Assembly: GCA_041946865.1 (NCBI GenBank)
Contig: JBHGBF010000028.1
Location: forward strand, 4,257 to 68,256
From: Acidobacteriota bacterium
GTDB lineage: Bacteria > Acidobacteriota > UBA6911 > RPQK01
DNA length: 64,000 nucleotides
Direction of reading: 5' to 3'
Shown piece after piece: positions 6,157 through 40,986 of the stretch. Position numbers and translations under genes: made by a program. Within the stretch, counting starts at the first letter, position 1; the number at the start of each line of letters is the position of its first letter. The notes under the pieces are model-generated. The model saw only the letters and a program-made list of their open reading frames with translations, searched no databases and was not told where the DNA came from.

Positions 6157-6212
6157 AATTCTTCCGTTTCAGGTTCAACCTTACTCAGCGCCTCTTTGCG
6201 TGGTTTCTGGCT

Positions 6213-7703: not shown

Positions 7704-7731
7704 TTGGGTTTTTGATCCGAAGCGGTTGCCG

Positions 7732-9630
7732 CTACTCCCCCGCCTCGAAGAAGTATCTCTCCTTCTTGCGCATTTCTTCCCAGGCCTTCCTGGCTTCCCG
7801 CACTCCGGGCATCTCGCTGACCTCAGCGACGTGGACGTCCCACCAGCTCTCGTACCCGGGCACCCCGACATAGCGGTCGCTGTTGATCGTGATCACCGTA
7901 GTCCGGTCGGTCTTCCTGGCTTCTTTCAAGGCGGAGGCCAGGTCCTGGTAGGTCAGGCAAGGAATGACGTGGGCGCCCAGGCTGCGGGCATTAGCGGCAA
8001 AATCGATCAGAAGAGGCTCGACCTCCTCGCCGGCGGAGTCTCCGGGCAAGACACCGTCTTTCCTATACGCGTACCGCGTCCCGAAGCCGTCCTGGCCGAG
8101 CGAGCGGCTCAAGCCTCCGATGCTTTTGAACCCCCCATTGTCAATCAGAACCACGATCAGCTTGTAACCTTCCTGGATCGAGGTGGCGAGATCGGACGAG
8201 AGCATGAGGTAGCTGCCGTCACCCACAATCACGTACACGTCTCGCTCCGGCGCCGCCATCTTCGCGCCCAGGCCTCCGGCGATCTCATAGCCCATGCAGC
8301 TGTAGCCGTACTCCATATGGAAATTCTTGGAGTGGCGCGCCCTCCAGAGCTTATGCAAATCTCCCGGAGCGCTGCCGGCGGCATTGATCATGATCGCATC
8401 CGGACCTGATAGCTCGTTGACGGCTCCCAGAATCTCGCCCTGGCTCGGCAAGGGCTCGTTTCGTATACCGTAAATCCGATCGACCTCTGCCTCCCACTCG
8501 TCGTGCAGGCGGCAGCTCTCCAGGCGGTACTGCCCGTCAACCTGCCAGCCCTCCAGCAGGCTGCCCATTTCCTGTAACGTCACGCGGGCATCCCCGATCA
8601 GGCACAAGGCAAAGTGTTTTCCGGCATCGAAACCGGTTACGTTGATATTAATAAAGCGAACGGCTGGGTTCTGAAACGCGGTCTTGGAGGCGGTGGTGAA
8701 ATCGCTATAGCGGGTTCCGACGCCGATGATCAGGTCCGCATCACGGGCGATCCGATTGGCGGCCAGCGTCCCGGTCACTCCGACAGCGCCCAGGTTTAAC
8801 GAATGGTCGTAACGAAGGCTTCCCTTCCCGGCCATCGTCTCGCCCACGGGAATGCCGGTTCGGTCGACCAGCTCGCGCAGCGTTTCGGTCGCGTCCGAGT
8901 AAATCACCCCGCCCCCGGCAATCAGCATGGGGCGACGGCTCGCCCGGATCAGCTCCACGGCGCGCACGATCGCCTCGCGGTCAGGCCGATTACGCGGAAT
9001 CCTCCACACCCGGCGGCGAAAGAACGCTTCCGGGTACTCGAACGCCTCCGCCTGAACGTCCTGGGGTAGCGCGAGGGTCACAGCGCCGGTCTCAGACGGG
9101 CTTGTCAGGACGCGCATCGTCTCCGGCAACGCGGTCAGAAGCTGGTCGGGACGGTTGATGCGGTCCCAGTACCGGCTCACCGGCTTGAAACAGTCGTTCA
9201 CCGAGATGTCCTGGCTCTGCTCCCACTCGAGCTGCTGCAGGACGGGCGCAACGTTGCGCCGGGCAAAAATGTCGCCGGGAAGGAGAAGGACCGGAAGGCG
9301 GTTGATCGTAGCGACAGCCGCACCGGTGATCATGTTCGTGGCGCCGGGACCGATGGAGGAAGTGCAAACCAGCGTCTGAAGCCGGTTCTTCACCTTCGCA
9401 TAGGCGACCGCGGTATGCACGGCCGCCTGCTCGTTCCGTGACTGGTAATAGCGGAAATCAGGCATCTGCTGCAAAGCCTGGCCAATACCGGCGATGTTGC
9501 CATGCCCGAAAATGCCGAAGCACCCGGCGAAAAACGGCACTTGTACGCCATCACGTTCGACCTGCTGTTGTTTCAAGAAAGCAAGGAGGGCCTGGGCCAT
9601 AGTCAGGCGCCGAGTCGCAGGCGCGGTCAT
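7732..9630 (-). CDS. iolD: 3D-(3,5/4)-trihydroxycyclohexane-1,2-dione acylhydrolase (TPP enzyme)
   Basis: The 632-aa protein has the thiamine-pyrophosphate enzyme fold ('[15 protein letters not shown]' N-terminal domain and a 'GDGSYLM' TPP-binding motif). It overlaps iolB by 4 nt. Confidence 0.8.
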
Positions 9631-10538
9631 AGTTTTCTTGCCTCCGTCAGGTTATAGACAGGCACCCGCGGGTCAGGGCTTGCGTACGAACCCTTCACCC
9701 ACGCGTACTGGGGGTCGTCAGTCGCGGCCAGGCTCTGGGCGCTGCCCGCCAGGACGTTCAGATAGTAGGTGGTGTAACCAACCGGGCTTGAAACGGGATG
9801 ATAGCCTTCCGGGATCAGCACGACATCATGGTCGCGGGCCGTGACCGTGGCGTCGATCGGGCGTCCTGCCAACTGCAACGGCGAATCCGGCCCCGTGTAG
9901 ACCCGCTGCAGGGCGTAGCCCCCCGGCCGGTCGAACCGGTAGTAGTAGATCTCGTCCAGATCAGCTTCGACCAGGGCGCCGGCGGCGTCTTCCCGATGGC
10001 GGTCGTGCTTGTGCGGGGGATAGCTCGACCAGTTTCCGCCGGGCGTGTAGACCTCGACCACCACGAGCCGTTCGGAAGGAAATCCCGGCGGCATGATGTT
10101 GTTGATCTGGCGTGTGGCATGGCCCCCGCCGCGGATTTCGACGCCCACCTGATCGGGAGTCACCAGGTGAGGGGGGAAGCTCGATCCCGCCGCGGCAGAA
10201 GCGATGGCCCATTCGCAGGGGGTAACGGCGCCGACGCAGAACGTGGTGTACGGCGGCAAATAGAGGGCGTAGGGAAGACCGGCGAAGACATCCGGACGCC
10301 GGCCTGCTCCGTGCCAGTCTCCGCGGTTCGAGCTGACATCAAGCACCCCACTGAGCACTACCAGGGCCAGTTCCTGCCCGCCCGTCTCGGACTGCCATTG
10401 TCCACCGGCGGCCAGTCGTCGGACCTGGAACCAGAGCGTATCCCAGCCCGCCTCTTCCGGGCGCACCTCGACAATCACGGCCGGGTCGTCGGATCGGCCG
10501 GGATGAATCATGAGGTTCGTGGAGTCGTACTGTTTCAT
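9627..10538 (-). CDS. iolB: 5-deoxy-glucuronate isomerase
   Basis: The 303-aa cupin-fold protein has the IolB-like 'YPPHKHDRH' metal-binding motif and sits within the iol cluster. Confidence 0.75.
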   Translation of the reverse strand: MKQYDSTNLMIHPGRSDDPAVIVEVRPEEAGWDTLWFQVRRLAAGGQWQSETGGQELALVVLSGVLDVSSNRGDWHGAGRRPDVFAGLPYALYLPPYTTFCVGAVTPCEWAIASAAAGSSFPPHLVTPDQVGVEIRGGGHATRQINNIMPPGFPSERLVVVEVYTPGGNWSSYPPHKHDRHREDAAGALVEADLDEIYYYRFDRPGGYALQRVYTGPDSPLQLAGRPIDATVTARDHDVVLIPEGYHPVSSPVGYTTYYLNVLAGSAQSLAATDDPQYAWVKGSYASPDPRVPVYNLTEARKL

Positions 10539-10581
10539 GGCACAACTGAAGGAGGAAGCCGCCTCGCACGCGCGTCAGCCT

Positions 10582-11679
10582 TCACCCTTCGCCCTGCTTC
10601 ACATCCGGATTCGGCAGCATGAAGTCCCGCACCACGGCCATCAGGTCGTGAACGGCTTCAATAAAGCCGCGCAGCGTGCGGACCGTGGCCCCAAATCCGT
10701 CGAACTCGGCGAGTGTCATCCCGTCCGGATCATAGGCTCGCCGGAAATCAGGGATCATCCGGTAGAGGGCATCGATGATTTCCGGGCTGACCGGACGGTC
10801 GATCGTCCTCTCCACTTTCAAGTCTGAGGCATTCGCCTTGCGTGCCCACTCGCAGGGCATCGAATGGATGAAATCGCCGCCAATCAGCTCCGTCCAGTGC
10901 CCCAAATGACGGTAAGCCGCCACAAGCAGCCGGGCCCGGTAACCGCGTTCCTGAAAGATGCCGTATGCCCGCTTGAACGTCGCAATCCCCGCCCACCTCA
11001 GGTAGGACGGATCTATATCGATCTCGTCCCGCCTGGCCAGGACTTGCATCCAGTCATCATTGCGTCCCACCATGATGGTCGCCACCGGCGACATGTGAGC
11101 GATGTCCAGACCGCCGGCCTCGCGGCGTTCCAGGCCGCGCTCAACAGCTTCCGCTACGGCCACAGCTTGAGAAACGGAAAAACTGACGGTCGCGTTAATG
11201 CTGACGCCCCGGAACGTGGCCTCTTCGATGGCCGGGATCCCCGCCGCTGTCGCCGGGATCTTCACCTGCATGTTGGGAGCAAGCGAATTGAAGTGATCGG
11301 CTTGTTGGACCAGGGTCTGGGTATTGCGGTAGTAGGCGGGGTTCGTCTGGATTGAAAGCCTCCCTTTCTTGCCCTGGTGCCGCTCGAATACAGGCAGAAG
11401 CAACCGGGCGCCGTGGGTGGCTATCTCCTCGATCAGCCGCCACGCAATCTCCGTCTCCGACCAGGTGGCGTTGCGCGTGATAATGCGGTTCAGCCGCTCA
11501 CGCCATTGCGGCATCTCCTTCTTCAGCACTCCCAGTACGATCACTGGATTGGTGGTGGCGCCGACAGCGCCGTGCTCAAGGCCGTACGACAACTCCTCAG
11601 TGGAACAAGAGTCGTTCCAGTAATCGGTAGGAGTGCTCGAGACCATCTGACGCAGGGGACTTAAAGCGACTTCAGGCAT
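10582..11679 (-). CDS. Transaldolase family protein (long Tal type)
   Basis: The 365-aa ORF has 'TTNPVIV', the catalytic-lysine region 'QVKIPATAAG' and 'INATVSFS', which are transaldolase signatures. Confidence 0.7.
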   Translation of the reverse strand: MPEVALSPLRQMVSSTPTDYWNDSCSTEELSYGLEHGAVGATTNPVIVLGVLKKEMPQWRERLNRIITRNATWSETEIAWRLIEEIATHGARLLLPVFERHQGKKGRLSIQTNPAYYRNTQTLVQQADHFNSLAPNMQVKIPATAAGIPAIEEATFRGVSINATVSFSVSQAVAVAEAVERGLERREAGGLDIAHMSPVATIMVGRNDDWMQVLARRDEIDIDPSYLRWAGIATFKRAYGIFQERGYRARLLVAAYRHLGHWTELIGGDFIHSMPCEWARKANASDLKVERTIDRPVSPEIIDALYRMIPDFRRAYDPDGMTLAEFDGFGATVRTLRGFIEAVHDLMAVVRDFMLPNPDVKQGEG

Positions 11680-11745
11680 GCCCTTCTCCAGAAAACTAGA
11701 AGTCTGATAGTTTCAAGCTAGCTGAGAACAGACGAAAGAACAAGG

Positions 11746-11825
11746 AAAGCGGGCGCCGCGGAGCCGCAAGCACAGCGCTTTTCAGCGGACCGTCAGCGGA
11801 CGGGGAGCGCGTCGGGTGCGTGCCG
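11746..11825 (-). repeat. GC-rich hairpin intergenic repeat, copy A (inverted relative to copy B)
   Basis: The reverse complement of this copy aligns with 61549..61623 at about 90% identity over ~75 nt (core 'CCGACGCGCTCCCCGTCCGCTGACGGTCCGCTGAAAAGCGCTGTGCTTGCGGCTCC'). It lies 62 nt upstream of the transaldolase start, in sense orientation. Confidence 0.55.
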
Positions 11826-11865
11826 TTAAGGAGTGCCCATTTCGAACGGTGCAGTGTCGAAGCCG

Positions 11866-13191
11866 TTACGAGAACCGGGTTCGCTTCCAGAGGGCGGCGG
11901 TGCAGACGGTCAGGACCGCCACGGTCGCCGTCACAAGCACAACCATCCAAAAGGGGTTCATGCTCAAGTCCGGAGTAACGGTCCCGAGACCTAACCAGAC
12001 GAAAACCGCCAGCGCGAGCACGATGATCAGGAAGTCCCACCAGGCGCGCTTGGGTGTTTCGCGCGACAGAGGGTCGTCCCCCGTAAGCGCCGCCTCGACA
12101 CGGGCCGGGTCTATGCCGTAACGCCCGCATTCCCGCATCATGGCCGCCCGCCAGGAAGCCTGCTCTGAGTGAGGCGCCTCGGCGCGGCTGATGGCCACGG
12201 CCCCACCGACAATGATCAAAGAGCCGAGAATCACCATCAACTGATAGGGTGCGCCTTTTCCGTGAAGCTCGCCGAAGACCAACGCGCCCCAGGCGAGGCC
12301 CCAGAGCTGGTTCGTGTTCGAAAGCGGAATTCCCCGCGCTATACCCACATATTTAGCGGCGTACTGTTGGAAAAGGTCCCCAATCACCCAGCAAAAGCCG
12401 CCCAGGAAGAGCCAGAACAGCGAAGAACGCAGCGCGGAGAGCTCGCCGCTGAACACCGAGACCCCCCCGACAAAGGAAATGGTGAGAATACCGATAGTGA
12501 CTAATTCGCCCAGGGTGAAAATCGTGACAAAGGAGAGCGGATTCATGCCGCTGATGTACGCCTTACGGTAGGGGATGTACATGGTGCCCCAGAGCAAGCC
12601 CGCGCCCAGCGCGGCCGCAAGGCCGGCGCCCGCCCGGTCAGACAGGCCGGCCGGTTGCTGGCTCGTCGCCAGGCCGAGCACGCATGCCCCTGCGACAATG
12701 GCAATGGCCCCCCCGAGGACTTTCGCCCACGGTCCAGCCCCCGCGCCCCGCAACTCCTTGAAAAGGAGGACGCCCCAGAAGAGGCCCACGAGGCTGTTCG
12801 TGTTCCAAAGGGGAAAGGCCACCGAGAGACCGATGTCCCGGATGGCAAAAATCGTCAGCGTGTTGGCCACCGCCCAGAGAGCGCCGGCCAGGATGGCCCA
12901 GGGGATCAAGTGCGGCTTCTCGCGCAGATCCCTCCACACGTAGGTAGTGCCCTTTAGCGCCATTGGCAGGGTCCAGCGGGCGACAAAGACACCGACCACC
13001 ATGCCCATCGAGATCAGGAATGGGGAGAAGCCCAAGGTGACGAGCTTCGTCGGGGCTTCTGCCGCGCCCAGCCACGCCCCTGCCGCAAGCCCGCACATGA
13101 CACCAAGCCGATGAAGAGAAAGCACACCAGTTTTGGGAAGAGTCGCCGAGCCTGTAGCCATTCGAGTCTCCTGCAAGCCGACCACGGACAC
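11866..13191 (-). CDS. DMT-superfamily sugar transporter (GRP / GlcU-RhaT-like) with C-terminal two-TM extension
   Basis: Two EamA-like halves each end in '...LFKELRG / ...VFGELHG' motifs typical of the glucose/ribose porter family. The protein has about 12 predicted TM segments. Confidence 0.55.
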   Translation of the reverse strand: MSVVGLQETRMATGSATLPKTGVLSLHRLGVMCGLAAGAWLGAAEAPTKLVTLGFSPFLISMGMVVGVFVARWTLPMALKGTTYVWRDLREKPHLIPWAILAGALWAVANTLTIFAIRDIGLSVAFPLWNTNSLVGLFWGVLLFKELRGAGAGPWAKVLGGAIAIVAGACVLGLATSQQPAGLSDRAGAGLAAALGAGLLWGTMYIPYRKAYISGMNPLSFVTIFTLGELVTIGILTISFVGGVSVFSGELSALRSSLFWLFLGGFCWVIGDLFQQYAAKYVGIARGIPLSNTNQLWGLAWGALVFGELHGKGAPYQLMVILGSLIIVGGAVAISRAEAPHSEQASWRAAMMRECGRYGIDPARVEAALTGDDPLSRETPKRAWWDFLIIVLALAVFVWLGLGTVTPDLSMNPFWMVVLVTATVAVLTVCTAALWKRTRFS

Positions 13192-13353
13192 AGGACCATG
13201 CTCAAGGAGGTGAAGTCCGTATCACGCGTTGGCTTGCGCTAGTGAATCAGCAGCAGCACCAGTATCCCGACGATCAAGACTCCGAGCGGAATCCAGAAAT
13301 GAACATCGGTGAGAATCTGCCGCCCGATCGAATTTGTCACCTCGTCACCCTGT

Positions 13354-14796
13354 TCAATGAATGCCGCTGCCGCCGCTCAATTCCTTGGCCAGAGCGCCGA
13401 CAACGGCTTTGGCATCCCCAAACAACATGAACGTTTTGTCGGCATAATACAGCTCGTTCTCGATGCCGGCAAATCCGGGATTCATCGTCCGTTTGATGGC
13501 AAAACACGTGCGGGCCTTGTCCGCGTCGATAATCGGCATCCCGTATATCGGGCTGCCCTTGTCGTGCCTTGCCGCCGGATTGACGACATCGTTTGCGCCG
13601 ATCACGAGCGCAACGTCCGCTTCCGGCATCTCCGGGTTTATCGAATCCATCTCGATCAGCTTATCGTACGGGATTTCCGCTTCGGCCAAAAGCACATTCA
13701 TGTGCCCGGGCATGCGCCCGGCCACCGGATGGATCGCGAATTTGACGTCAATGCCACGCCTGGTCAGCTGATCGAACAGCTCCCTGACCATGCGTTGGGC
13801 CTGGGCAACCGCCATCCCGTAACCCGGGATGATCACTACCAGCTGGGCCTGTTCGAGAATCTGGGCTGCCCCCTCGATTGTCTCGGTCTTCACGCTCTTC
13901 TTTTCGGCAACCGGCCCGGACGCGTGGACTTGCCCGAAGGCGCCGAAGAGCACGTTTGTGAAAGACCGGTTCATGGCCCGGCACATGATGACCGAAAGGA
14001 TGAAACCGGAAGAACCGTCCAGGGCGCCGGCCGTAATCAGCAATTGATTGTCGAGGACAAAACCCATCGCCACCGCCGAGAGGCCCGCATACGAGTTGAG
14101 CAGCGAGATCACGGTCGGCATGTCCGCGCCGCCGATCGGTATGATCAAGAGGATCCCGAACAGGAGGGAGAGCGCTATGACGGCGGGGAACAGGATCGAC
14201 CAGGTCGGGTTGATGACCAGCGCCACCCCGCAGCCTATCGCGATAGCAAGCAGCAGAAGGTTGACGACGTTCTGGCCTCGATACGTTACCGGACGTTGCG
14301 GGATCCAGGGCAGCTCCTGCAGCTTCCCGGCCGCCATGAGACTTCCGGTGAAAGTCAGGAAGCCCAGAATGATCTCCGCCGCAATAGCGGTCATGCGAAA
14401 GGCAGTCAGTTGTTCAGGGCCCTCCTGGAGCCACAGGTAGTACTTGGCCGTGCCGACCAGGCCGGCCGCCAGACCGCCGAAAGCGTGGGAAAGGGCCGTT
14501 CGCTGGGGAACGGCAGTGAGCGGTACCCAGGAGAGTGGAACACCGATCACCGTGCCGATGACGACGGCCACGGCGATTGATGTGTAATTGACCACGTCTG
14601 GATTAACCAGAGTGCCGATCACGGCAAGGAGCATGCCGCCCACGCCCGCGATGACACCGTGGCGGGCCGTTTTGGGGTCACTCATCCATTTCAGCGAGAA
14701 TATGAAAAGCGCCGTCGCGACCAGGTAGGCGAACTGGATCAGGTACAAGCTCGTACTGTGCCTGGTCGTAACAAGGAGAATCAAGCTGTCACTCAT
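13354..14796 (-). CDS. pntB: NAD(P) transhydrogenase subunit beta
   Basis: The 480-aa protein has an N-terminal multi-TM region and a C-terminal dIII NADP-binding domain ('GYGMAVAQAQ', 'VIGANDVVNPAA'). Confidence 0.9.
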   Translation of the reverse strand: MSDSLILLVTTRHSTSLYLIQFAYLVATALFIFSLKWMSDPKTARHGVIAGVGGMLLAVIGTLVNPDVVNYTSIAVAVVIGTVIGVPLSWVPLTAVPQRTALSHAFGGLAAGLVGTAKYYLWLQEGPEQLTAFRMTAIAAEIILGFLTFTGSLMAAGKLQELPWIPQRPVTYRGQNVVNLLLLAIAIGCGVALVINPTWSILFPAVIALSLLFGILLIIPIGGADMPTVISLLNSYAGLSAVAMGFVLDNQLLITAGALDGSSGFILSVIMCRAMNRSFTNVLFGAFGQVHASGPVAEKKSVKTETIEGAAQILEQAQLVVIIPGYGMAVAQAQRMVRELFDQLTRRGIDVKFAIHPVAGRMPGHMNVLLAEAEIPYDKLIEMDSINPEMPEADVALVIGANDVVNPAARHDKGSPIYGMPIIDADKARTCFAIKRTMNPGFAGIENELYYADKTFMLFGDAKAVVGALAKELSGGSGIH

Positions 14797-15074
14797 TGTC
14801 GGCCAGGCTCCCTTTTCTTGAACATTTTCAGCATGCGGTCAGTGATCAAAAAACCGCTCACGATGTTGGTCACCGACGCCACGACGGCCACCAGCCCGAG
14901 CACGTTGATGTAGGTCGGATGCTGGCCGCCGGCCAGGATAATCGACCCGACAACCGCAATGGCCGAAATGGCGTTCGTCAGCGACATCAAGGGGGTGTGC
15001 AGGAGCCGCGACACTCGCCGGATGACTTCAAACCCGATGAACGTCGCGAGCATGAATACAAACAGCATCGACAT
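14793..15074 (-). CDS. NAD(P) transhydrogenase subunit alpha part 2 (membrane segment)
   Basis: This small 3-TM protein lies between the pnt alpha-1 and beta genes. I trimmed the start to the internal Met 'MSMLFVFMLATFIG'; the ORF maximum is 15164. Confidence 0.7.
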   Translation of the reverse strand: MSMLFVFMLATFIGFEVIRRVSRLLHTPLMSLTNAISAIAVVGSIILAGGQHPTYINVLGLVAVVASVTNIVSGFLITDRMLKMFKKREPGRQ

Positions 15075-15287
15075 GTAGTCGAAGGTCGGATCCTGGCCGG
15101 CCTGCGGTGTCGATGCTGTACCGGTCTGCAGAGTCGCCACGAGCAGCGGCGGATGAAAAATCATGATTGTTTCTCCGTTTTTCTACTTTCCATCACATCG
15201 GGGAGCGCAGCAACCTGCCTGCCTGTGCGTCGAGAGCACCAATCTGACCGGCGCCACAAGCAGGCAAGACACCCGCGCCCCCAGGGA

Positions 15288-16439
15288 CTAGGACGCCTTG
15301 GCCAGGGCTTCCTTGGTCAGCGCATGACGGACTTCTCCCTCATGCGTGATTACCGCCTGGCTCAGGATTTCATCGCTCCAGTCACGGTTAAACTGATTGT
15401 CCTTCCAGAAGGCCATGACGAAAGCGGTCAGGTTGCGCGAATAGAGGGTGCTGGCATGGACCGGCATGGTCGAGGGAAGGTTCACGGGCGCAACGATTTT
15501 GACCCCGCCCTCGATGACCGTCTCGCCGGGCCGGCTCAGCTCGCAGTTCCCGCCCCCTTCCGCTGCCAGATCGACAATCAGTGACCCGGGGCGCATACTC
15601 CGGACCATTTCGGCGCTGATAAGCCTGGGCGCGATGACACCACGGATCAGCGCAGTCGTGATGACGACATCGGACACGGCCAACTGCTCGGCCAGCAGCT
15701 CCCGCTGCCGGCGGCGGTCGTCTTCGGACAGTTCCCGGGCGTAGCCGCCCCCGGCGGCTGCGCTTTCCTTGAGCTCAATGCCGACGTACCGGGCGCCGAC
15801 GCTTTCGATTTGCTCCTTTACCTCCGGCCGCACGTCCGTCGCGGTGACCGCCGCACCCAGGCGCCTGGCCGTGGCAATAGCCTGCAACCCGGCCACTCCC
15901 GCCCCAATGACAAAGACCTTGGCCGCAAACACCGTTCCCGCGGCGGTCATAAACATGGGGAAGTACTTGGGCAACTCCAGGGCCGCCAGCAGGACACCTT
16001 TATATCCCGAAATATTCGCCATCGAGGACAGCGTGTCCATGCCCTGGGCTCGGGTCGTCCGGGGAATGGCGTCCGTGGCAAAGGCGGTGACCTTACGCGC
16101 CAGCAACTGCCGCACGACCTCCAGATGACGGGTGGGCATGAGCGTTGCTAGAAGCATGCTGCCCGGGCGCATCAGCTCTACCTCGTTGATTCTTGCTGAA
16201 TCGACCAGGGGCGGTTGCACTTTGAGGACCAGGTCCGCTTCACCGTAAAGGGTCGCCGCGTCCGGGACCAGCGTCGCTCCGGCACTTGTATACACGTCAT
16301 TGTTCAGGAAAGCGTTAACGCCCGCATCGCGCTCGATCAGCACTTCAATCCCGGCGCCGGACAGTTTCTTGCATGATTCCGGGACGAGAGCGACTCGGTT
16401 TTCTCCAGGCCAGATCTCTTTCGGCACACCGATTTTCAT
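15288..16439 (-). CDS. pntA: NAD(P) transhydrogenase subunit alpha part 1 (dI, alanine-dehydrogenase-like)
   Basis: It has the 'MKIGVPKEIWPGENRVALVPES' N-terminus and a Rossmann 'VFVIGAGVAGLQAIATARRLGA' motif. The start was trimmed from 16505. Confidence 0.85.
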   Translation of the reverse strand: MKIGVPKEIWPGENRVALVPESCKKLSGAGIEVLIERDAGVNAFLNNDVYTSAGATLVPDAATLYGEADLVLKVQPPLVDSARINEVELMRPGSMLLATLMPTRHLEVVRQLLARKVTAFATDAIPRTTRAQGMDTLSSMANISGYKGVLLAALELPKYFPMFMTAAGTVFAAKVFVIGAGVAGLQAIATARRLGAAVTATDVRPEVKEQIESVGARYVGIELKESAAAGGGYARELSEDDRRRQRELLAEQLAVSDVVITTALIRGVIAPRLISAEMVRSMRPGSLIVDLAAEGGGNCELSRPGETVIEGGVKIVAPVNLPSTMPVHASTLYSRNLTAFVMAFWKDNQFNRDWSDEILSQAVITHEGEVRHALTKEALAKAS

Positions 16440-16501
16440 AACCTTCGTTTTTACAGGAAGATACTTTTGTTTGGAAGGATATCCGGGGTCGAAAAGGAAA
16501 G

Positions 16502-17776
16502 TCAAATAGAGGGTAAGCGCGCAGCCGGAATCTCTTCCAGTTTTTCCTGCGGATCAATCCAGAACCAGGCGGCGGCGGCGCCGAGGTAAAGGACGGCCAC
16601 AGTGTAAAGGGGCGCGTTCCAGGAGTGCCAATGGTCGAGAAGAACGCCGACCACGACTGGGCTCAGGGCGCCACCAAGATTCCCAAAGGTATTCATGGCG
16701 CCGCTGATAACACCCGCGTTCCGGCGTCCGATGTCGAGGCAGGTGGCCCAGGCCGGAGCGACTCCGAGAGCCGAGAAACCGGCAGCAACGGCGACTGCGA
16801 GCGCGGCTCCAACCGGACCGGGCGCTGTTACCGCCCGCACAATGGCGACTGCCGCCACGGGAAGGCCGATCAAGCCAGGCAGCCTCCTCCCCAAACGCGG
16901 CCCCCATCTGGTCACCAGGGCGTCGCTTACCCACCCTCCGGCCAGCACTCCGACGGCAATCGAGAGCAACGGCAGGGCCGACAGCCAGCCGACTGCTTTC
17001 AGCTCAAATCCGCGGGCGCGATACAGATAGTGGGGAAGCCACGTCAGGTAGAAATACCAGCCATAGATTGTCCCGCAGTACATCAGGCAGAGCGCCCGCA
17101 GGCTGCGGTTGCTCCACAGCCGGCGCCACGGAACGCGGACGTGCCCGATTTCAGTCGCATGGCTGCCGATGGCCGCCAGCTCGGCTTCGTTCACGGCCGG
17201 ATGAGCTCCCGGATTGTCCCGGAACCACCAGAACCACCCGACAGCCCAGATTATCCCTACCGCCCCGAACAGCGGAAAGACAGACCGCCAGCTGATGTAT
17301 CCGAGAAGCGTCACGACCAGCGGCTGAGTCAGCGAGGCCCCGAGCAAGCCGGCCATTACGGTCAAGCCGAACGCCCGCCCGCGATCCCGCTCCGAAAGCC
17401 AGCGTCCGTAGACCCAGGCCATCGAGGGGTAAGCCCCTGCCTCTCCCATCCCAAAGAGCATTCGAATCACGAACAACAAAAGAAAATTCCAGGCCATCCC
17501 CGTAGCGGCCGTCATTAACGACCAGGCCACCACGATCCGGGTCAGCATCCAGCGCGCACCGAATCGGTCCACCAACCAGCCGCCGGGCACTTCAAACAAG
17601 GCGTATGCCGCCGTGTAAATGCTGAACACATAACCCATCTGCGAGTCGGACAAGGCAAGCTCCGACTTGATCGCCAGGCTCGCCGTCGAAATGCAGACCC
17701 GATCGAGATAGACAATCGCCGAGAGAAGCAGTGTGAGGACCAGAACGATGTGGCGGGCTCGCGTCGCCTCAGGCAT
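16502..17776 (-). CDS. MFS transporter
   Basis: The 424-aa protein has 12 TM segments and the MFS signature 'GWLVDRFGARW' between TM2 and TM3. Confidence 0.8.
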   Translation of the reverse strand: MPEATRARHIVLVLTLLLSAIVYLDRVCISTASLAIKSELALSDSQMGYVFSIYTAAYALFEVPGGWLVDRFGARWMLTRIVVAWSLMTAATGMAWNFLLLFVIRMLFGMGEAGAYPSMAWVYGRWLSERDRGRAFGLTVMAGLLGASLTQPLVVTLLGYISWRSVFPLFGAVGIIWAVGWFWWFRDNPGAHPAVNEAELAAIGSHATEIGHVRVPWRRLWSNRSLRALCLMYCGTIYGWYFYLTWLPHYLYRARGFELKAVGWLSALPLLSIAVGVLAGGWVSDALVTRWGPRLGRRLPGLIGLPVAAVAIVRAVTAPGPVGAALAVAVAAGFSALGVAPAWATCLDIGRRNAGVISGAMNTFGNLGGALSPVVVGVLLDHWHSWNAPLYTVAVLYLGAAAAWFWIDPQEKLEEIPAARLPSI

Positions 17777-18129: not shown

Positions 18130-20697
18130 ATGAGATTCGTCAGGCGGGATTTTCTCAAGATTTCAGGAGCGGTGCCGGGCTCTTGTCTCTTGAGTTCGGG
18201 CGCAGCACAACTCCGGGAACAGGCGGGAAAGCGACCGTTCAACGCGCCGTACCGGGACCTCCATCTGAACCGGGTGGCTTTTCCCATCGGCGGAATAGGC
18301 GCAGGGATGCTTTGTCTGGAGGGAACCGGGGCATTCTCGCACTTCAGCCTCCGTAACAAACCCGACATCTTTAACGAGCCGTGCACTTTCGCGGCGGTCT
18401 CGGTCAAGGGACTCGAAAACGGCGTCAAGGTTCTGGAGGGTCCGGTGCCCGACTGGAAGATTTTCGGAATGCGCGGCACGGGCAACGGCGCCGGCGGAAC
18501 CAGCTACGGCTTTCCCCGGTTCAAACAGGCCGAATTCGAGGTTCGATTCCCCTTCGCCCGTGTGAGCCTCCAGGATCCCGACGTCCCGCTCGTCATTCAA
18601 CTGACCGGATGGAGTCCATTCATCCCCGGAGATGCCGACAGCTCAAGCCTCCCGGTCGGCGGCTTCGAGTACGAATTCGAGAACACGGCAGGCCGCGACT
18701 TGTCTCTGCTCTTCTCGTACAACGCCAAGAACTTCATGGCCGTGGGGAAGACGGGAAACTCGATCCGCGCTTTCCCGCGAGGTTTCATTCTGGCGCAGGC
18801 CGGCGGCAAGGAGAAGCCCCAGGAGCAGGGCGAATTCGCCGCTTTTGTGGCTGAGCAGGCGGCGGTAGTCGACCACTGCTGGTTTCGCGGCGGCTGGTGG
18901 GACTCCGTGACCATGGTGTGGAAGACGATCCTCGAGCGTCAGCCCGTCTCTCGGCCCCCAGTAGAGGAGAAGGCGCCCGGCGCCTCGATCTTCGTGCCCT
19001 TTGATCTTCGAGCCGGTGAGAAGAAGACCATCCGCCTGATGTTCGCCTGGTTCGTACCGCAAACCGATCTCCGTTACGGGGAAGACCCGGAGGGTACCCC
19101 GGAGCCGAAAGGATGCGAGGGTGGCTCCCCCTGCTGCCCCGAACGGAAGTTCGACGTCCCCTGGTATGCCGGCCGGTTTGCCGGCATTGCGAAGGTGGCC
19201 GAGTACTGGCGCGACCACTACGATCAGCTCCGAGCCGGAAGCGCCCTCTTCCGCGACACTTTCTACGACACGACGCTGCCGCCCGAAGTCGTGGAGGCGA
19301 TCGCCGCCAACCTCACGATCCTGAAATCCCCGACGGTACGGCGACAATGCGACGGCCGGCTTTGGTGCTTTGAGGGCTGCGGTGACGACTGGGGCTGCTG
19401 CCATGGCTCCTGCACGCACGTCTGGAATTACGCCCAGGCCGTTCCCCACCTGTTTCCCGAACTGGAAAGAAGCCTTCGCCAGTCGGAGTTCGGCGAGAGC
19501 CAGGACAAACGCGGGCACCAGACCTTCCGGACCGCCCTCCCCATCCGACCGACCACGCACAGCTTTCACGCCGCTGCCGACGGCCAGCTCGGCGGCATAA
19601 TGAAAGTACACCGGGAATGGCGGATCTCCGGAGACGCGGAGTGGCTGAGAGACCTCTGGCCGCGCGTCAAGAAGAGCCTTGACTACTGCATTGAAACCTG
19701 GGATCCGGGCCACAAAGGGGTTGTCGAGGAGCCCCACCATAACACCTACGATATCGAGTTCTGGGGACCGGACGGCATGTGCACAAGCTTCTACCTGGGA
19801 GCGCTCACGGCCGCCATACGCATGGGAAGCGCCCTCGGCGAAGATACCACTCGCTATGCGCAACTGCTCGAAAAAGGCCGAGCCTTCATGGAACAGAGCC
19901 TTTTTGACGGCGAGTATTTCATCCAGCAGATCAAGTGGCAGGGGCTGAAAGCCAAGGATCCGGTAGAGGCCTCGAAGGGCGCCTGGAATTCCGACTACTC
20001 GCCCGAGGCCATCGAACTGCTGCAGAAAGAAGGGCCTAAATACCAGTACGGGAGGGGTTGCCTGTCGGACGGCGTCCTGGGCTTCTGGCTGGCCGAAATG
20101 TGCGGCCTGGGCAGGATCGTCAACCAGGATCAGCTGCGCAGGAATCTGAAGGCCATCTATCGCTATAACTTGAAGAAAGACTTGAGCGACCATTCCAACC
20201 CTCAACGTCCCTCCTATGCGATCGGCCGCGAAGGCGGACTCTTGCTCTGCACCTGGCCGAAGGGCGGGCAGCTGTCTCTGCCGTTCGTGTACAGCAACGA
20301 GGTCTGGACGGGCATCGAGTACCAGGTCGCTTCTCACCTGATGCTCGAAGGCATGCCTGAGGAAGGGCTCGATATCGTCAGGACCTGTCGCGAGCGGTAT
20401 GACGGAGTCATCCGCAACCCCTTTGACGAGTACGAATGCGGACACTGGTATGCGCGCGCCTTGTCGAGTTACGGGCTGATCCAAGGCTTGACCGGCGTTC
20501 GTTACGATGCCGTGGATCAGACGTTGTACATCGATTCGCGCGTCGGGAACGATTTCCGCGCATTTCTCGCGACCGCCTTTGGCTTTGGGACTGTCGGCCT
20601 GAAGAACGGACGCCCGTTCGTGCAAATGAAATCAGGCCGGCTCGAGGTCAAGAAATGCGTCGTGTCGGGGAAGGAAACGGAGCTCGAACGGGGTTGA
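18130..20697 (+). CDS. Glycoside hydrolase family 116 (GBA2-type beta-glucosidase/glucosylceramidase-like), TAT-exported
   Basis: The 855-aa protein carries the twin-arginine motif 'RRDFLKISGA'. Its N-terminal domain 'LNRVAFPIGGIGAGMLCLEGTGAFSHFSL' is typical of the GH116 N-domain, and the DUF608-like catalytic C-domain follows. Confidence 0.75.
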   Translation: MRFVRRDFLKISGAVPGSCLLSSGAAQLREQAGKRPFNAPYRDLHLNRVAFPIGGIGAGMLCLEGTGAFSHFSLRNKPDIFNEPCTFAAVSVKGLENGVKVLEGPVPDWKIFGMRGTGNGAGGTSYGFPRFKQAEFEVRFPFARVSLQDPDVPLVIQLTGWSPFIPGDADSSSLPVGGFEYEFENTAGRDLSLLFSYNAKNFMAVGKTGNSIRAFPRGFILAQAGGKEKPQEQGEFAAFVAEQAAVVDHCWFRGGWWDSVTMVWKTILERQPVSRPPVEEKAPGASIFVPFDLRAGEKKTIRLMFAWFVPQTDLRYGEDPEGTPEPKGCEGGSPCCPERKFDVPWYAGRFAGIAKVAEYWRDHYDQLRAGSALFRDTFYDTTLPPEVVEAIAANLTILKSPTVRRQCDGRLWCFEGCGDDWGCCHGSCTHVWNYAQAVPHLFPELERSLRQSEFGESQDKRGHQTFRTALPIRPTTHSFHAAADGQLGGIMKVHREWRISGDAEWLRDLWPRVKKSLDYCIETWDPGHKGVVEEPHHNTYDIEFWGPDGMCTSFYLGALTAAIRMGSALGEDTTRYAQLLEKGRAFMEQSLFDGEYFIQQIKWQGLKAKDPVEASKGAWNSDYSPEAIELLQKEGPKYQYGRGCLSDGVLGFWLAEMCGLGRIVNQDQLRRNLKAIYRYNLKKDLSDHSNPQRPSYAIGREGGLLLCTWPKGGQLSLPFVYSNEVWTGIEYQVASHLMLEGMPEEGLDIVRTCRERYDGVIRNPFDEYECGHWYARALSSYGLIQGLTGVRYDAVDQTLYIDSRVGNDFRAFLATAFGFGTVGLKNGRPFVQMKSGRLEVKKCVVSGKETELERG

Positions 20698-20913
20698 GGG
20701 CGAGGCCCGAAAGAGCCGCGCCGGAGTTACCTTAGTCCGAATTTGCCCCTGGAGATACTCGTCACACGGAGTCGAGCCGCCGGACTCCAGCGTGGTTCTG
20801 TGTACCGGCCCTTCGCGAAAAGCTCGTGATGGTCCCCCCGTTTGAGGTGCACCCGAAGACATGCCAGAATGGAGCAAAGCTTCCCAAGCTCTCAACTTCC
20901 CCAGGAGAGATTC

Positions 20914-22989
20914 ATGGGTTACAGGAGTTCATATCGTACCCTCTCGCTCGCCGTCCTCTCGGTTCTTCTCGTCGGGTTCTCCACAGAGGCCATCAAACAG
21001 TTGAATCGTCCAAGCTTCTCGAAGGTCGACTTTCTGACTCGCGAGCAGGTGGCCTTTGTCCGCCCCGGCCTCCAGTTGACCGTGCAGGACGTGTCTGTCA
21101 ACAACCGGACCGTTGCGGTGGTTTACCGAATCACTGACCCTCAGAGTTTGCCGCTTGATCGGCTGGGCGTCTTCACGCCCGGCGCCGTCAGCACCAACTT
21201 CGTTCTGGCCTATCTGCCACCCGAGCCGGCAGGAGTCCCCGACTATCAAGCCCTGACGCTTCGGCAGGTGACAAGTCCCCTGACCAACGTCACGACCCAG
21301 CAGCCGGGCACAGACCAGGGAGGGACGACCGAGGAGATAGAGCGGGGCACGTACCGGTACACCTTCAGGACCCAGCTTCCGGCGGAATTAGATCCGAGCG
21401 GCACTTATTCCGTCGGCATTTATGCGACCCGGGATCTGGCGGAATTTGATCTCGGTCCGTTTCACGCCAACCTGGTGGTGAACTTCAACCCGGCCAGCGG
21501 ACAGCCGCAGACAGTTCACGATGTCGTGAGCAACGCCGCCTGCCGTCAATGCCATGATCCTTCCATCCCCGACGCGGCGGTGGAAGCTCACGGTGGCGCC
21601 AGGCAGAAGATTGAGTTGTGCGTCCTCTGTCATACCCCGCAGCTGTTGGACCCGGACACCGGCCAGCCCCTCGACATGAAGATCATGACTCACAAGATCC
21701 ACATGGGAGAGCAGCTGCCTAGCGTGCAGGCGGGGCGGCCGTACCAGATCATCGGCTTTCAGCAGCGGACCATCGACTTTTCGCACGTGGTTTTCCCGCA
21801 GAGCATCATGAATTGCCAGACCTGCCACGGCGCCGGCCAAGAGGCGAACGAGCCGGGCGCTCCGGTGCAGCAGGAGGCGTTCCTGCTGCAGCCCGGCATG
21901 GAGGCTTGCGGGTCCTGCCACGACGACGTCAACTTCGCGACAGGCGAGAGCCATCACGGCATCCAGGTCACGTCAAATGCCCAGTGCCAGACCTGCCATC
22001 AGCCTTTTGGAGAGCACGAATTCGACGCTTCGATTCAGGGGGCGCACACTGTGGTGGCCGCATCCCAGCAACTCGAGGGGATCAACATCCAGATTCTGGA
22101 CGTAACCAGTTCCGGTCCCGGACAGAACCCATCGGTCCTGTTCAGCATGAAAAACCGTGCCGGCCAGGTGATTACTCCGAGCACGCTCAGTTTCTTCAAC
22201 CTGCTGATCGCCGGCCCCACGACCGACTACACCACGCTTATCAGCGAACCGGCTGCGACCGACTCAGTCGCCGCCGGCGAGAACTTCCGGTACACCTTCA
22301 AGGCGCCGATACCCGCCAATGCAGCCGGAACGTTCGCCGTGGGCGCCGAGGCCTATCGGAACCTCATGATCGACACGGGCGAACCGGAGTTGGCGCAGGT
22401 TCGCGAGACGGCTGAAAACCCTGTCAAGTATTTCGCGGTGACCGGCGAGGTTCAGCCAAGGCGAGTGGTCGTGACTGATGAACTGTGCGAATCCTGTCAT
22501 GAAAACCTGGCAATACACGGCGGGATCCGCCATAACGCCACCGAGTACTGCCAGTTCTGCCACAATCCGACGGCCACTGACGCTTCCCAGCGCCCGGCCG
22601 AACAGAATCCGCCGCAATCCATCGACCTGAAATTCCTGGTTCACAGGATCCACCGCGGAGAGCAACTGACCCGCGATTTCACAGTTTTCGGATTTGGTCG
22701 CCGGCCGATTAGCTTCAATGAGGTTCTCTTTCCGGGCGATCTGAGACTGTGCGCCAGTTGCCACGTGGACCAGACCTATCAGGTGCCGTCGATGGGCGTG
22801 GTGGCGACAACCGCGCCCAGGGAGTTTTACAGTCCGATTCCTCCCAACTCCTCGGCCTGCCTGGGCTGTCACGACACTCTGGACGCGGCCGCTCACACTT
22901 TCGTCAACACTTCGCAGTTCGGAGAATCGTGCGGCGCCTGCCACGGCCCGCAAGGGGAATTTGCAGTGGATAAGGAACACGCGCGGTAG
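20914..22989 (+). CDS. Decahaem c-type cytochrome, OmcA/MtrC-like four-domain architecture, secreted
   Basis: There are ten CXXCH motifs arranged 5+5 (CRQCH, CVLCH, CQTCH, CGSCH, CQTCH, then CESCH, CQFCH, CASCH, CLGCH, CGACH). Each pentahaem block is preceded by a haem-free domain of ~150-200 aa. The N-terminal signal peptide 'MGYRSSYRTLSLAVLSVLLVGFS' has no lipobox cysteine. AGGAGAG lies 5 nt upstream of the ATG. Confidence 0.7.
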   Translation: MGYRSSYRTLSLAVLSVLLVGFSTEAIKQLNRPSFSKVDFLTREQVAFVRPGLQLTVQDVSVNNRTVAVVYRITDPQSLPLDRLGVFTPGAVSTNFVLAYLPPEPAGVPDYQALTLRQVTSPLTNVTTQQPGTDQGGTTEEIERGTYRYTFRTQLPAELDPSGTYSVGIYATRDLAEFDLGPFHANLVVNFNPASGQPQTVHDVVSNAACRQCHDPSIPDAAVEAHGGARQKIELCVLCHTPQLLDPDTGQPLDMKIMTHKIHMGEQLPSVQAGRPYQIIGFQQRTIDFSHVVFPQSIMNCQTCHGAGQEANEPGAPVQQEAFLLQPGMEACGSCHDDVNFATGESHHGIQVTSNAQCQTCHQPFGEHEFDASIQGAHTVVAASQQLEGINIQILDVTSSGPGQNPSVLFSMKNRAGQVITPSTLSFFNLLIAGPTTDYTTLISEPAATDSVAAGENFRYTFKAPIPANAAGTFAVGAEAYRNLMIDTGEPELAQVRETAENPVKYFAVTGEVQPRRVVVTDELCESCHENLAIHGGIRHNATEYCQFCHNPTATDASQRPAEQNPPQSIDLKFLVHRIHRGEQLTRDFTVFGFGRRPISFNEVLFPGDLRLCASCHVDQTYQVPSMGVVATTAPREFYSPIPPNSSACLGCHDTLDAAAHTFVNTSQFGESCGACHGPQGEFAVDKEHAR

Positions 22990-23013
22990 ACCTGCGGATC
23001 AACGCGGACGTCA

Positions 23014-23050
23014 CGCCGATAGCGTCCGAATCAGCTCGGGGCTATCGGCG
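23014..23050. terminator. Bidirectional terminator-like hairpin between convergent cytochrome and M1-like genes
   Basis: CGCCGATAGC ... GCTATCGGCG forms a 10-bp perfect stem with an inner CCGA/TCGG stem. No clear U-tract is present, as is common in GC-rich genomes. Confidence 0.35.
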
Positions 23051-23070
23051 GGAGGTCCGGGTCCGCGGGT

Positions 23071-25062
23071 TTACCCAATGATGCTCTGCGGTTTGGTGAA
23101 CGGCTCCTTCAGGTATTTCTGCGCTTCGGCCTGGGCGCCGTTATAGTCGACTTTGGTATTGATTGCCTTCTGGTACTCCGCCGTCGCCCGCTCGCGCTGG
23201 TTCAGGATGTCGTAGATCTTACCCATGTAGATATGGGTCCAGGTCTCGACCCACTCGGGTTTCAGGTCGCCGTTCAGGGTATCGCGAAAAGCGTTGGCGG
23301 CGTTGGTGAAGCTGTGCTGCAGGAACATGACCTCGCCCAGCCGGTAGGCGGCCAGTGAGCTGCGAGGATCGGCTTCCCGGGCTTTTTCAAAAGCGCGCAC
23401 GGCCTCTACGTACTCGCCCTTCGCCTGGTATTCCTCGCCGAGAGCAATCTGCACCAGTACCTGCATCTGTTCGGAATTCCGCAGGATTTTCCCATCAGGA
23501 TCGAGCTTCATCCGAATAGGCAGCGTTTGCGTCGGGAAGTTGAAGGAGGTGCTCTTCCCATTCAGCGTGAGCGACTTTTTTTCCTCCTGGCCCTTCGTCT
23601 CGATCGTGATGTCAAGCGGCATGCGGAACAGCTCCTGGTCCTGTTTGACCTGCCCGCGAACGGCGAAAGTGCCGTCTTTTTTCTTCAGGATCTGGTAGTC
23701 GACGCGAAGATCCGGGATCCCGGTCGATTCGACCCACTGCATGAAGAACCACTTGTAGTCCTGCCCGGACCGCTCCTGGACGAACCTGACGAATTCGGGC
23801 GTCGTCTCCACGTTATCCGCGTGCTGCTTGTACCAGTCGACCAGCATGGCGTTCAGCTTGTCCTTGCCCATCAGCTGGCCGAGCATGTAGAGCACGTAGG
23901 CGCCTTTGCTGGCGATGATTGACTGATATTCGGGCGTCCCTTCTTCCAGCTCAAACCCTTTGCCGATCGCGGCCTTTTGCTCGTACTTCAGCGCGTTGAC
24001 CGCCTGCCTGGCCAGTTCGGTCTGATAGCGGTCAGGGTACCTGGTTTCGACGTAACGGAGGGCGGCATAGGTGGCAAAACCATCCTGCAGCCAGGCATCG
24101 TAGACTTCCTTCGGCCTGGCCGAATAGCCCCACCACTGGACCGCCAGCCTGCGAGCCAGGTCGACCACAGGGATCACCTTGGTCGTAAGAAACGAGTCCT
24201 CAAGGAGGACCAGGCCGGCTGCGCCCGGCGACGGCAGATTAACATTGCCAACCGCCGCGATGTTGAGGTGCTCGAACGGGAAACGGCCGTACTCCTTGTT
24301 CAGGAACTCGAGCACCTGGTTGATCTCGGTCAAGAGAGGCTTCAGGTCTTGGGACTGCTGCTCGCCGACAAAAAGGGTGGTCGGCACCGGCGCCTGTTCC
24401 ACCTCGTGGCGAAAGAAACGGGACACGATGACCGGAACGTGGGTGACCGGGACAGCGCTTTTCCACGTGAAAATCTCGGTGACACCGGAGATCTCGGTCG
24501 GCTGCAGAACTCCCGGTGCGACGACGCTAAAGCCCAGCGGGACCTTGATCTTGAGGTCGGCAGTGGCGGCATCGAGGGGGAGGCGATAGAACGGGAACCA
24601 GCGCCCTTCCGTCAAAAGCAGGGCGCCGTCTTGAAATATGACTGCTTTTTCCGACCGGGGGACATCGAGGAAGGCATATTCCTGGCGCTCGAGTGCCCCT
24701 TCGAAACGGAAAATCAGGGTCTTTTCGCTGCCCCCGCGAAACGGACCCTCGCCACGGACGGCGATCCGCTGGCTCTCAACACCATCGAAGCTGGTGGAAT
24801 AGGACGTGCCTTCGGGGTCCACGATTTCGGTAACGCTCAACCGGTTGTTCAGCTCGAACGGTATCGTCAACACGTCCTGCGGGACCATGAACCGAACTTT
24901 GGTCTCGCCTTTAAGAAAACCGTTCTCGGGCGTGATTTCCGCATCGATCTCGTAATGCAGGACGTCGATCTGGGGCTGCGGAGGGCCCTGGGACCTGGCC
25001 TGCGCGGCCAGGAAACCGGCCGAGGAGATCAATGCCAATAAGGTCATCAACAGTTTTTTCAT
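23071..25062 (-). CDS. M1 (aminopeptidase N/LTA4H-like) family pseudo-peptidase with C-terminal TPR domain; signal peptide
   Basis: The 663-aa protein has the signal peptide 'MKKLLMTLLALISSAGFLAA' and an M1 fold. The canonical HEXXH-(18)-E zinc site is replaced by 'RRLAV...WLQDGFA'. C-terminal TPR repeats follow. Confidence 0.7.
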   Translation of the reverse strand: MKKLLMTLLALISSAGFLAAQARSQGPPQPQIDVLHYEIDAEITPENGFLKGETKVRFMVPQDVLTIPFELNNRLSVTEIVDPEGTSYSTSFDGVESQRIAVRGEGPFRGGSEKTLIFRFEGALERQEYAFLDVPRSEKAVIFQDGALLLTEGRWFPFYRLPLDAATADLKIKVPLGFSVVAPGVLQPTEISGVTEIFTWKSAVPVTHVPVIVSRFFRHEVEQAPVPTTLFVGEQQSQDLKPLLTEINQVLEFLNKEYGRFPFEHLNIAAVGNVNLPSPGAAGLVLLEDSFLTTKVIPVVDLARRLAVQWWGYSARPKEVYDAWLQDGFATYAALRYVETRYPDRYQTELARQAVNALKYEQKAAIGKGFELEEGTPEYQSIIASKGAYVLYMLGQLMGKDKLNAMLVDWYKQHADNVETTPEFVRFVQERSGQDYKWFFMQWVESTGIPDLRVDYQILKKKDGTFAVRGQVKQDQELFRMPLDITIETKGQEEKKSLTLNGKSTSFNFPTQTLPIRMKLDPDGKILRNSEQMQVLVQIALGEEYQAKGEYVEAVRAFEKAREADPRSSLAAYRLGEVMFLQHSFTNAANAFRDTLNGDLKPEWVETWTHIYMGKIYDILNQRERATAEYQKAINTKVDYNGAQAEAQKYLKEPFTKPQSIIG

Positions 25063-40978: not shown

Positions 40979-40986
40979 GCCGTTCA

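Follow-up and report, generated by a model that had tools for sequence, protein, structure and literature searches.

The subject of this analysis is a gene in a stretch of 64,000 nucleotides (nt) from contig JBHGBF010000028.1 of an Acidobacteriota bacterium; this whole stretch is called the window below. The open reading frame (ORF) at 20914-22989 on the + strand, stop codon included, encodes a decahaem c-type cytochrome of the OmcA/MtrC family with a length of 691 amino acids (aa), here termed the window cytochrome. A protein 100% identical to it (P0001) is already in NCBI, from a 76,679-bp contig, under the name 'MAG: OmcA/MtrC family decaheme c-type cytochrome [Acidobacteriota bacterium]'. 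The features of the gene, including domain limits taken from an AlphaFold2 (AF2) model with its predicted local distance difference test (pLDDT) values, are as follows:

20842-20870 (+): promoter-like element, with -35 TTGAGG at 20842-20847, a 17-nt spacer, TG at 20862-20863 and -10 CAGAAT at 20865-20870
20903-20908 (+): ribosome-binding site AGGAGA, 5 nt before the ATG, as read from the sequence
20914-20991 (+): predicted signal peptide of the Sec/signal peptidase I (SPase-I) type, about residues 1-26, MGYRSSYRTLSLAVLSVLLVGFSTEA, no lipobox cysteine
21061-21513 (+): Domain I, split beta-barrel, about residues 50-200; AF2 strands 54-191, pLDDT mostly >90
21514-22038 (+): Domain II, pentahaem, haems 1-5; CxxCH at residues 210, 236, 301, 332 and 358; PF22113 and PF14522
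22039-22458 (+): Domain III, second beta-barrel, about residues 376-515; AF2 strands 391-508, pLDDT >90
22459-22986 (+): Domain IV, pentahaem, haems 6-10; CxxCH at residues 525, 546, 613, 649 and 673

The cytochrome gene and its product

The window cytochrome is a clear member of the OmcA/MtrC family, and its annotation in public databases is correct. With the NCBIfam model TIGR03507 (OmcA/MtrC decahaem), it scores 431.1 bits against a cut-off of 209.3 and covers profile positions 4-672 of 672. With PF22113, which describes domains II/IV of MtrC/MtrF, the score is 163.7 bits (cut-off 30) in two stretches, the best of which places residues 517-689, in Domain IV, on profile positions 1-175 of 176. 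Sequence matches in the PDB are MtrF (E = 1.6e-28), OmcA (4e-22), UndA (8.5e-16) and MtrC (~5e-7). The AF2 model, built on an alignment of 42 sequences, has a pLDDT of 83.9 and a pTM of 0.76; when it was compared with the PDB using Foldseek, the top 16 matches were all OmcA, UndA, MtrC or MtrF with a probability of 1.0, the 15 full-length chains among them gave TM scores of 0.54-0.67, and there was no other credible match. Domain I superposes on domain I of OmcA/MtrC in the same comparison. An earlier reading of the DNA (hereafter, the original prediction) had proposed an OmcA/MtrC-type decahaem cytochrome, and had named TIGR03507 and structural similarity beforehand as the tests able to refute it; both came out decisively in its favour.

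The order of a beta domain, five haems, a second beta domain and five further haems, also part of that prediction, is found in the motifs and in the model. There are exactly ten CxxCH motifs, in two five-haem blocks (residues 210-362 and 525-677) that each follow some 150-200 haem-free residues, and the AF2 secondary structure consists of strands at 54-191, helices at 207-361, strands at 391-508 and helices at 522-690. Across 42 sequences, 20 histidines are invariant. Ten are the proximal ligands within CxxCH, and the other ten are candidate distal ligands (H226, H260, H263, H347 and H378 in Domain II; H535, H577, H580, H661 and H689 in Domain IV). Every haem would thus have bis-His ligation, an assignment made from conservation and not from a haem-bound structure.

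The N-terminus, MGYRSSYRTLSLAVLSVLLVGFSTEA followed by IK after the presumed cut, has two Arg ahead of a hydrophobic stretch of about 14 residues, with small residues following at -3/-1, and reads as a cleavable Sec/SPase-I signal; this call was made by eye, and the cleavage site was placed by the -3/-1 rule. That the segment serves as a transmembrane anchor is unlikely, as the core is only about 14 residues long and is followed by the small -3/-1 residues. All 20 cysteines of the protein sit in haem motifs, leaving no spare pair, so there can be no lipobox cysteine, as the original prediction had stated: the translation has no cysteine before residue 210. Domain III likewise has no non-haem cysteine, so that the CX8C disulfide known from the Shewanella proteins is missing. 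Between the signal and Domain I lies a clade-wide motif, FSKxDxLTxxQxAFxRPGL. A longer version of the gene beginning with TTG at 20842 has no supporting ribosome-binding site.

Acidobacterial relatives and genomic context

No MtrA- or MtrB-like gene was found in the window, either by Pfam scans of all plausible genes or by searching its six-frame translation with clade-specific hidden Markov models (HMMs), for which positive controls gave values of 1e-108 to 1e-241. The absence claimed by the original prediction therefore stands for the 64 kb covered; about 12.7 kb of the 76,679-bp contig and the remaining genome lie outside.

The window cytochrome belongs to a large OmcA/MtrC branch in Acidobacteriota. 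At least 589 relatives exist among GTDB species representatives, and the best 80 of them all bear the label Acidobacteriota (Bryobacterales, Solibacteraceae, Thermoanaerobaculia, Blastocatellia, Holophagales and Terriglobia). At most of these 80 loci that have enough downstream sequence, the cytochrome is directly followed by a gene for a decahaem protein of the DmsE/MtrA family (~300 aa), and two such MtrA-like proteins tested with TIGR03508 scored 207 and 223 bits (cut-off 192). The next gene encodes a beta-barrel protein of ~650 aa without a strong Pfam match: 14 of 36 matched PF11854 (MtrB_PioB), with a best E of 4e-8, and others matched generic outer-membrane beta-barrel families. A profile search of PDB sequences with the MtrB-like proteins gave no match to MtrB and only a designed beta-barrel at E = 0.058, and the identification of these genes as mtrB rests on their position, their size and the partial PF11854 matches. 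About 15 of the evaluable fetched loci, roughly a fifth, have no MtrA/B within ~10 kb. Already in 2013, MtrC homologues in Acidobacteriota had been put forward as candidate iron reducers (PMC3669403), and acidobacterial mtrCAB was described in 2022 from five genomes, as 'Group 5', by Baker et al. (PMC8805035).

Some further observations concern these mtrCAB loci. Tandem or nearby MtrC-like duplicates are present at L012, L038, L076 and L079, and also at L080 and L067, the last of which has two complete mtrCAB sets ~5 kb apart; the 2022 survey reported no mtrC duplications for the acidobacterial group (PMC8805035). Beside mtrCAB in L004, at 5525-9452 (-), are genes for a cytochrome b/multihaem fusion (CbcL-like), a NapC/NirT-type cytochrome and a monohaem cytochrome, and beside mtrCAB in L006, at 7119-9652 (+), are genes for a Rieske protein, a cytochrome b and a multihaem cytochrome. 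Both sets are candidate inner-membrane modules for electron input to acidobacterial mtrCAB; no quinol oxidase was found near the acidobacterial clusters examined in 2022 (PMC8805035). In L007, directly after the mtrB-like gene, an ORF at 12429-14531 (+) encodes a multihaem cytochrome of ~700 aa that matches the MtrA-like HMM with E = 2.7e-23. It may be the extra cytochrome downstream of mtrB that has been reported for acidobacterial clusters, where it was described as tetrahaem.

The original prediction had treated the missing lipobox as a distinguishing feature and as a sign of a soluble shuttle or of a new use of the fold, a view that comparison with the relatives does not uphold. Among the 120 closest homologues (45-84% identity, acidobacterial wherever the source was named), only four, all among the more distant ones, have a lipobox-like motif. 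The others have a short hydrophobic signal followed by the motif ...F/YSKxDKxxYLTxxQxAFxRPGL, and the two MtrAB-adjacent (hereafter, AB-linked) proteins whose N-termini were read, those of L007 and L010, are lipobox-free in the same way as the window cytochrome. In addition, 111 of 118 full-length homologues lack any non-haem cysteine, and thus also the CX8C disulfide. In Shewanella, this disulfide (CX8-15C), located in domain III, exerts redox-linked control of flavin binding (PMC4486940). The absence of a lipobox is consequently the norm for the acidobacterial branch and a real difference only in relation to Shewanella. Furthermore, a soluble form of Shewanella MtrC that lacks the site of lipid attachment assembled spontaneously with MtrAB into a functional complex, from which its authors concluded that the lipid anchor of MtrC has no structural role (PMC8415449). 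As the two AB-linked proteins that were read are also lipobox-free and soluble MtrC assembles with MtrAB, the missing lipobox taken alone points neither to a soluble shuttle nor to a new use of the fold.

What sets the window cytochrome apart is its membership in a modest stand-alone subclade, which is not a new kind of system. In a neighbour-joining tree it groups tightly with P0002-P0009 and L002 (69-84% identity), and the sister of this subclade is an AB-linked clade that includes L007, L010, P0011, P0015 and P0017. Identity to AB-linked acidobacterial members is 51-57%, and the window cytochrome can be regarded as a paralogue of the MtrC that acidobacterial mtrCAB clusters encode. MtrA/B genes are absent within 10 kb on either side in L002 (P0007, 75% identity) and in L087 (P0005, 78%), and within 10 kb upstream and 3.3 kb downstream in L088 (P0008, 74%); in L089 (P0009, 69%), the contig ends 174 nt past the cytochrome gene. 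P0007 is encoded on contig_9704 of ENA ERZ25039513, and P0005 in ERZ25039545. The gene is therefore stand-alone in all four subclade members whose downstream DNA could be read (the window, L002, L087 and L088). The tree also contains a second, independent stand-alone clade, from Bryobacterales and Solibacteraceae (L034, L035, L039, L041, L045, L062 and L083).

Selection maintains the gene. Measured against L087, L002 and L089, its ratio of nonsynonymous to synonymous substitution (dN/dS) lies at 0.07-0.10 while synonymous sites approach saturation, values that indicate strong purifying selection and a functional gene, and the ten CxxCH motifs are kept in nine protein clusters at 69-84% identity, seven of them complete and two lacking only a called N-terminus. 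The subclade differs from AB-linked proteins at certain positions. Shewanella MtrC docks on MtrAB via a conserved sequence at haem 5, which lies 8 Å from haem 10 of MtrA (PMC7198977). The flank of haem 5 is PFGE(H/N)EFDAS in the subclade (for example PFGEHEFDAS) and mostly P(E/Q)GE(L/F/M)EFDAS in AB-linked acidobacterial proteins, a comparison that does not define the acidobacterial interface with MtrA; the second stand-alone clade has a change of its own there, GELPFD. Additionally, eight columns at which at least 70% of AB-linked proteins agree are fixed to another residue in the subclade. All eight (residues 95, 116, 128, 135, 165, 211, 223 and 253) are in Domains I-II and none is in Domains III-IV, and control clades have 0-4 such replaced columns. 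These differences are suggestive only, and we regard them as a lead towards an altered constraint on what may be the conduit-facing half of the subclade proteins.

The region upstream of the gene is also conserved in part. The promoter-like element ends 43 nt before the start codon, and an alignment of the five upstream regions of the subclade is invariant only in TTGAG(G/A)T-N13-TG-n-(C/A)A(G/A)AAT, nearly all of the remainder having diverged. The GGAG core of the ribosome-binding site occupies the equivalent position in L087, L088 and L089. The window contains a single match to the pattern TTGAGR-N14-TGNNANAAT, where 0.01 are expected, and among 90 fetched loci the pattern is present only in the five of the subclade, always just upstream of the cytochrome; since those five sequences also served to define the pattern, the weight lies in its absence elsewhere and not in its presence here. 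The conservation suggests that the element acts as a promoter and that the cytochrome gene forms its own transcription unit. A generic scan of 20500-23300 for sigma-70 promoter and terminator consensus sequences returned nothing, the element itself matching 8 of 12 consensus positions. With sigma-54 activators encoded nearby, a sigma-54 promoter was also looked for upstream by eye, and no GG-N10-GC match was seen. In L088, at about 9905-10000, the 659-aa gene call for P0008 is truncated at its N-terminus, and an in-frame ATG 96 nt upstream restores both a signal peptide, MSTRRFYRPLSLVLLSLLLLGFSTQA, and the usual distance to the element.

The nearest upstream gene is the following:

18130-20697 (+): GH116 glycosidase, PF12215 and PF04685, N-terminal twin-arginine motif MRFVRRDFLK

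The original prediction had this neighbour right, as a GH116 enzyme with a twin-arginine translocation (TAT) signal, on the same strand and separated from the cytochrome start by a 216-nt gap. A functional partnership of the two is not supported. The order PntAB, MFS transporter, GH116, cytochrome, M1 peptidase/TPR, LpxB and MnmA recurs only in the close relatives L087 and L088, and in L087 it is interrupted by opposite-strand PadR and MacB-type genes that separate the cytochrome from GH116. The other two loci do not share the order, the upstream neighbour being a heparinase II/III-like (polysaccharide lyase-like) gene in L002 and an amidohydrolase gene on the opposite strand in L089. As the whole flank (PntAB, MFS transporter, LpxB and MnmA) is conserved, the adjacency appears to be ordinary vertical synteny of the lineage, incidental to the function of the cytochrome.

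Probable role of the window cytochrome

Three known groups offer a comparison. The closest is the MtrC of acidobacterial mtrCAB ('Group 5', PMC8805035), with which the window cytochrome shares the four-domain, ten-haem layout, a Sec-type N-terminus that is not that of a lipoprotein, the post-signal motif and the absence of non-haem cysteines. By contrast, its gene has no mtrA/mtrB downstream or elsewhere in the 64 kb, and its subclade has a promoter-like element of its own and the replacements in Domains I-II and around haem 5. Shewanella MtrC/MtrF (PDB 4LM8, 6QYC, 6R2Q and 3PMQ) are alike in having ten bis-His haems, 5 + 5, flanked by two beta-barrels, a resemblance reflected in the E-value for MtrF given above and in TM scores of ~0.6. 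However, identity in structural alignments is only 15-20%, and the window cytochrome has neither the LxxC lipoprotein signal nor the CX8C flavin redox switch of domain III (PMC4486940), while its gene does not adjoin mtrAB. The best structural matches are Shewanella OmcA and UndA (PDB 4LMH and 3UCP; for 4LMH, E = 1e-28 and TM 0.65). These are paralogues that form no integral part of MtrAB and serve as additional terminal reductases, which is the role proposed here for the window cytochrome, but each is a lipoprotein containing one or two disulfides and has its gene within the mtr cluster (PMC4486940, PMC4417206), whereas the window gene is isolated and its product unlipidated and devoid of non-haem cysteines.

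The most likely role of the window cytochrome, to which we assign a probability of about 0.5, is that of an OmcA-like accessory module for extracellular electron transfer. In this model, the precursor would be exported by Sec and its signal peptide cleaved, the ten bis-His haems would be attached in the periplasm, and the cytochrome would then be moved to the cell exterior, as its homologues are. There, in an accessory, electron-distributing role such as that of OmcA and UndA in Shewanella, it would be reduced by a porin-cytochrome conduit whose genes lie elsewhere in the genome, and would in turn reduce Fe(III)/Mn(IV) minerals, humic substances or other acceptors outside the cell. Because there is no lipid anchor, retention at the surface would depend on protein-protein contacts. 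The transfer of electrons from MtrC to OmcA provides a precedent for paralogues that stand off the conduit (PMC8415449; PMC4486940). Several points weigh against this assignment. The extracellular location is taken only from homology, as substrates of type II secretion carry no sequence signature, and no type II secretion genes are found within the 64-kb window. The conduit is presumed to lie elsewhere while only 64 kb of a 76.7-kb contig are in view, and a protein that has neither a lipid anchor nor a conduit close by might just as well remain periplasmic or be released. In addition, the signal peptide was called by inspection, and the bias towards Domains I-II is small (eight sites) and comes from a grouping in a distance tree, so that it is suggestive only.

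The same data bear on several other readings. The protein could be a periplasmic decahaem cytochrome that is exported by Sec and never crosses the outer membrane, working as a soluble carrier or store of electrons that links quinol oxidases of the inner membrane to acceptors in the periplasm or the outer membrane. A Sec signal without a lipid anchor, the lack of adjacent secretion or porin genes, and a stand-alone, separately promoted gene amid the housekeeping genes LpxB, MnmA and PntAB would all suit such a protein. We nevertheless hold a periplasmic role to be unlikely, since all the characterised members (MtrC, MtrF, OmcA and UndA) are extracellular (PMC4486940, PMC7198977), and both beta-barrel domains, which are thought to handle external substrates, are well conserved. 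Moreover, AB-linked acidobacterial relatives share the N-terminal design and the post-signal motif, which argues for a common location, and for the MtrC of an mtrCAB cluster this should be the cell surface. A freely released shuttle that diffuses between the cell and minerals, one of the two readings offered by the original prediction, is improbable. It would be in keeping with the missing lipobox, with the stand-alone state of the subclade and with its specific changes at the haem-5 flank and in Domains I-II, and the replacement of a lipoprotein signal by a Sec signal is how soluble Shewanella MtrC was obtained (PMC4486940). However, the lipobox is missing throughout the acidobacterial branch, MtrAB-adjacent proteins included, so its absence cannot be a derived trait for release; a 72-kDa protein with ten haems would be, on general grounds, a costly diffusible shuttle; and a conduit would still be required to reduce the cytochrome outside the cell. 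Similarly improbable is a further reading, in which a stand-alone, unlipidated and disulfide-free MtrC-type decahaem cytochrome of Acidobacteriota works without any MtrAB-type conduit, as a released shuttle or with an unrecognised outer-membrane partner. If it were true, the replacements in Domains I-II and near haem 5 would mark a re-purposed electron-entry face.

Two other explanations carry far less weight. Functional coupling to GH116, for instance as a co-transcribed redox partner in carbohydrate turnover, might be supposed from the shared strand and the short gap, from the order of GH116, cytochrome, M1 peptidase and LpxB that is seen again in L087 and L088, and from the polysaccharide lyase-like gene upstream in L002. 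It is very improbable, as opposite-strand genes intervene in L087, unrelated genes lie upstream in L002 and L089 (on the opposite strand in the latter), the promoter-like element accompanies the cytochrome in all five contexts, and the flank is conserved as a whole. GH116 enzymes are hydrolases with no redox requirement. The breaks in synteny, together with the independent promoter-like element, led us to reject the link. That the gene is a decaying remnant left after the loss of mtrAB would fit the presence of mtrAB in the sister clade and its absence from the subclade, but is effectively refuted: the ORF is intact and keeps its ten CxxCH motifs and ten candidate distal histidines, the motifs persist through all nine clusters, dN/dS stays low over near-saturated synonymous divergence, and the promoter-like element and the ribosome-binding site are conserved. 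A pseudogene is ruled out by dN/dS and the intact motifs.

Acidobacteriota are among the most abundant bacteria of soils and sediments, and their part in the reduction of iron, manganese and humic substances is poorly pinned down. With at least 589 loci among GTDB species representatives, the acidobacterial branch greatly exceeds the five genomes of 2022, and two features that define the Shewanella model, the lipid anchor and the redox-switch disulfide, are missing across the close homologues read here. Metagenome surveys use homologues of decahaem cytochromes as markers of iron or humic reduction (PMC3669403). If the stand-alone copies are OmcA-like accessories, they represent routine diversification by gene duplication; if they work without a conduit, the inference of iron reduction from such marker genes would need revision.

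Other genes of the window

The remaining genes that drew attention are the following:

5131-13191 (-): GFO/IDH/MocA oxidoreductase, aldehyde dehydrogenase, thiamine pyrophosphate (TPP) enzyme (IolD-like), KduI/IolB, transaldolase/FSA-like protein and sugar transporter
13354-16505 (-): proton-translocating transhydrogenase in three genes, namely PntA dehydrogenase domains, a PntA segment with four transmembrane helices (14793-15164) and PntB
38839-41664 (+): lactate-utilisation genes, LutA-like (CCG domains) and LutB-like (LUD + 4Fe-4S), then probably a LutC-like ORF
43576-45210 (-): FG-GAP/ASPIC-UnbV protein
45113-48067 (-): 984-aa protein with four CxxCH motifs, weak similarity to cytochrome c554 and a C-terminal TPR array
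48372-51516 (+): histidine kinase and sigma-54 response regulator
51513-53351 (+): second FG-GAP/ASPIC-UnbV protein

The four-haem TPR protein is the only other cytochrome in the 64 kb. It adjoins the first FG-GAP/ASPIC-UnbV protein (together 43576-48067) and is divergent from the genes for the histidine kinase and the sigma-54 response regulator, the latter being followed by the second FG-GAP/ASPIC-UnbV protein; the multihaem-TPR and FG-GAP/UnbV proteins may form a functional module under sigma-54 control. The cluster at 5131-13191 is likely to serve the catabolism of myo-inositol or another sugar, and L088 shows synteny with it in the genes for the TPP enzyme, KduI/IolB, the transaldolase-like protein and the transporter. 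In L087, the transhydrogenase region is split into more ORFs than in the window, probably as a result of long-read frameshifts.

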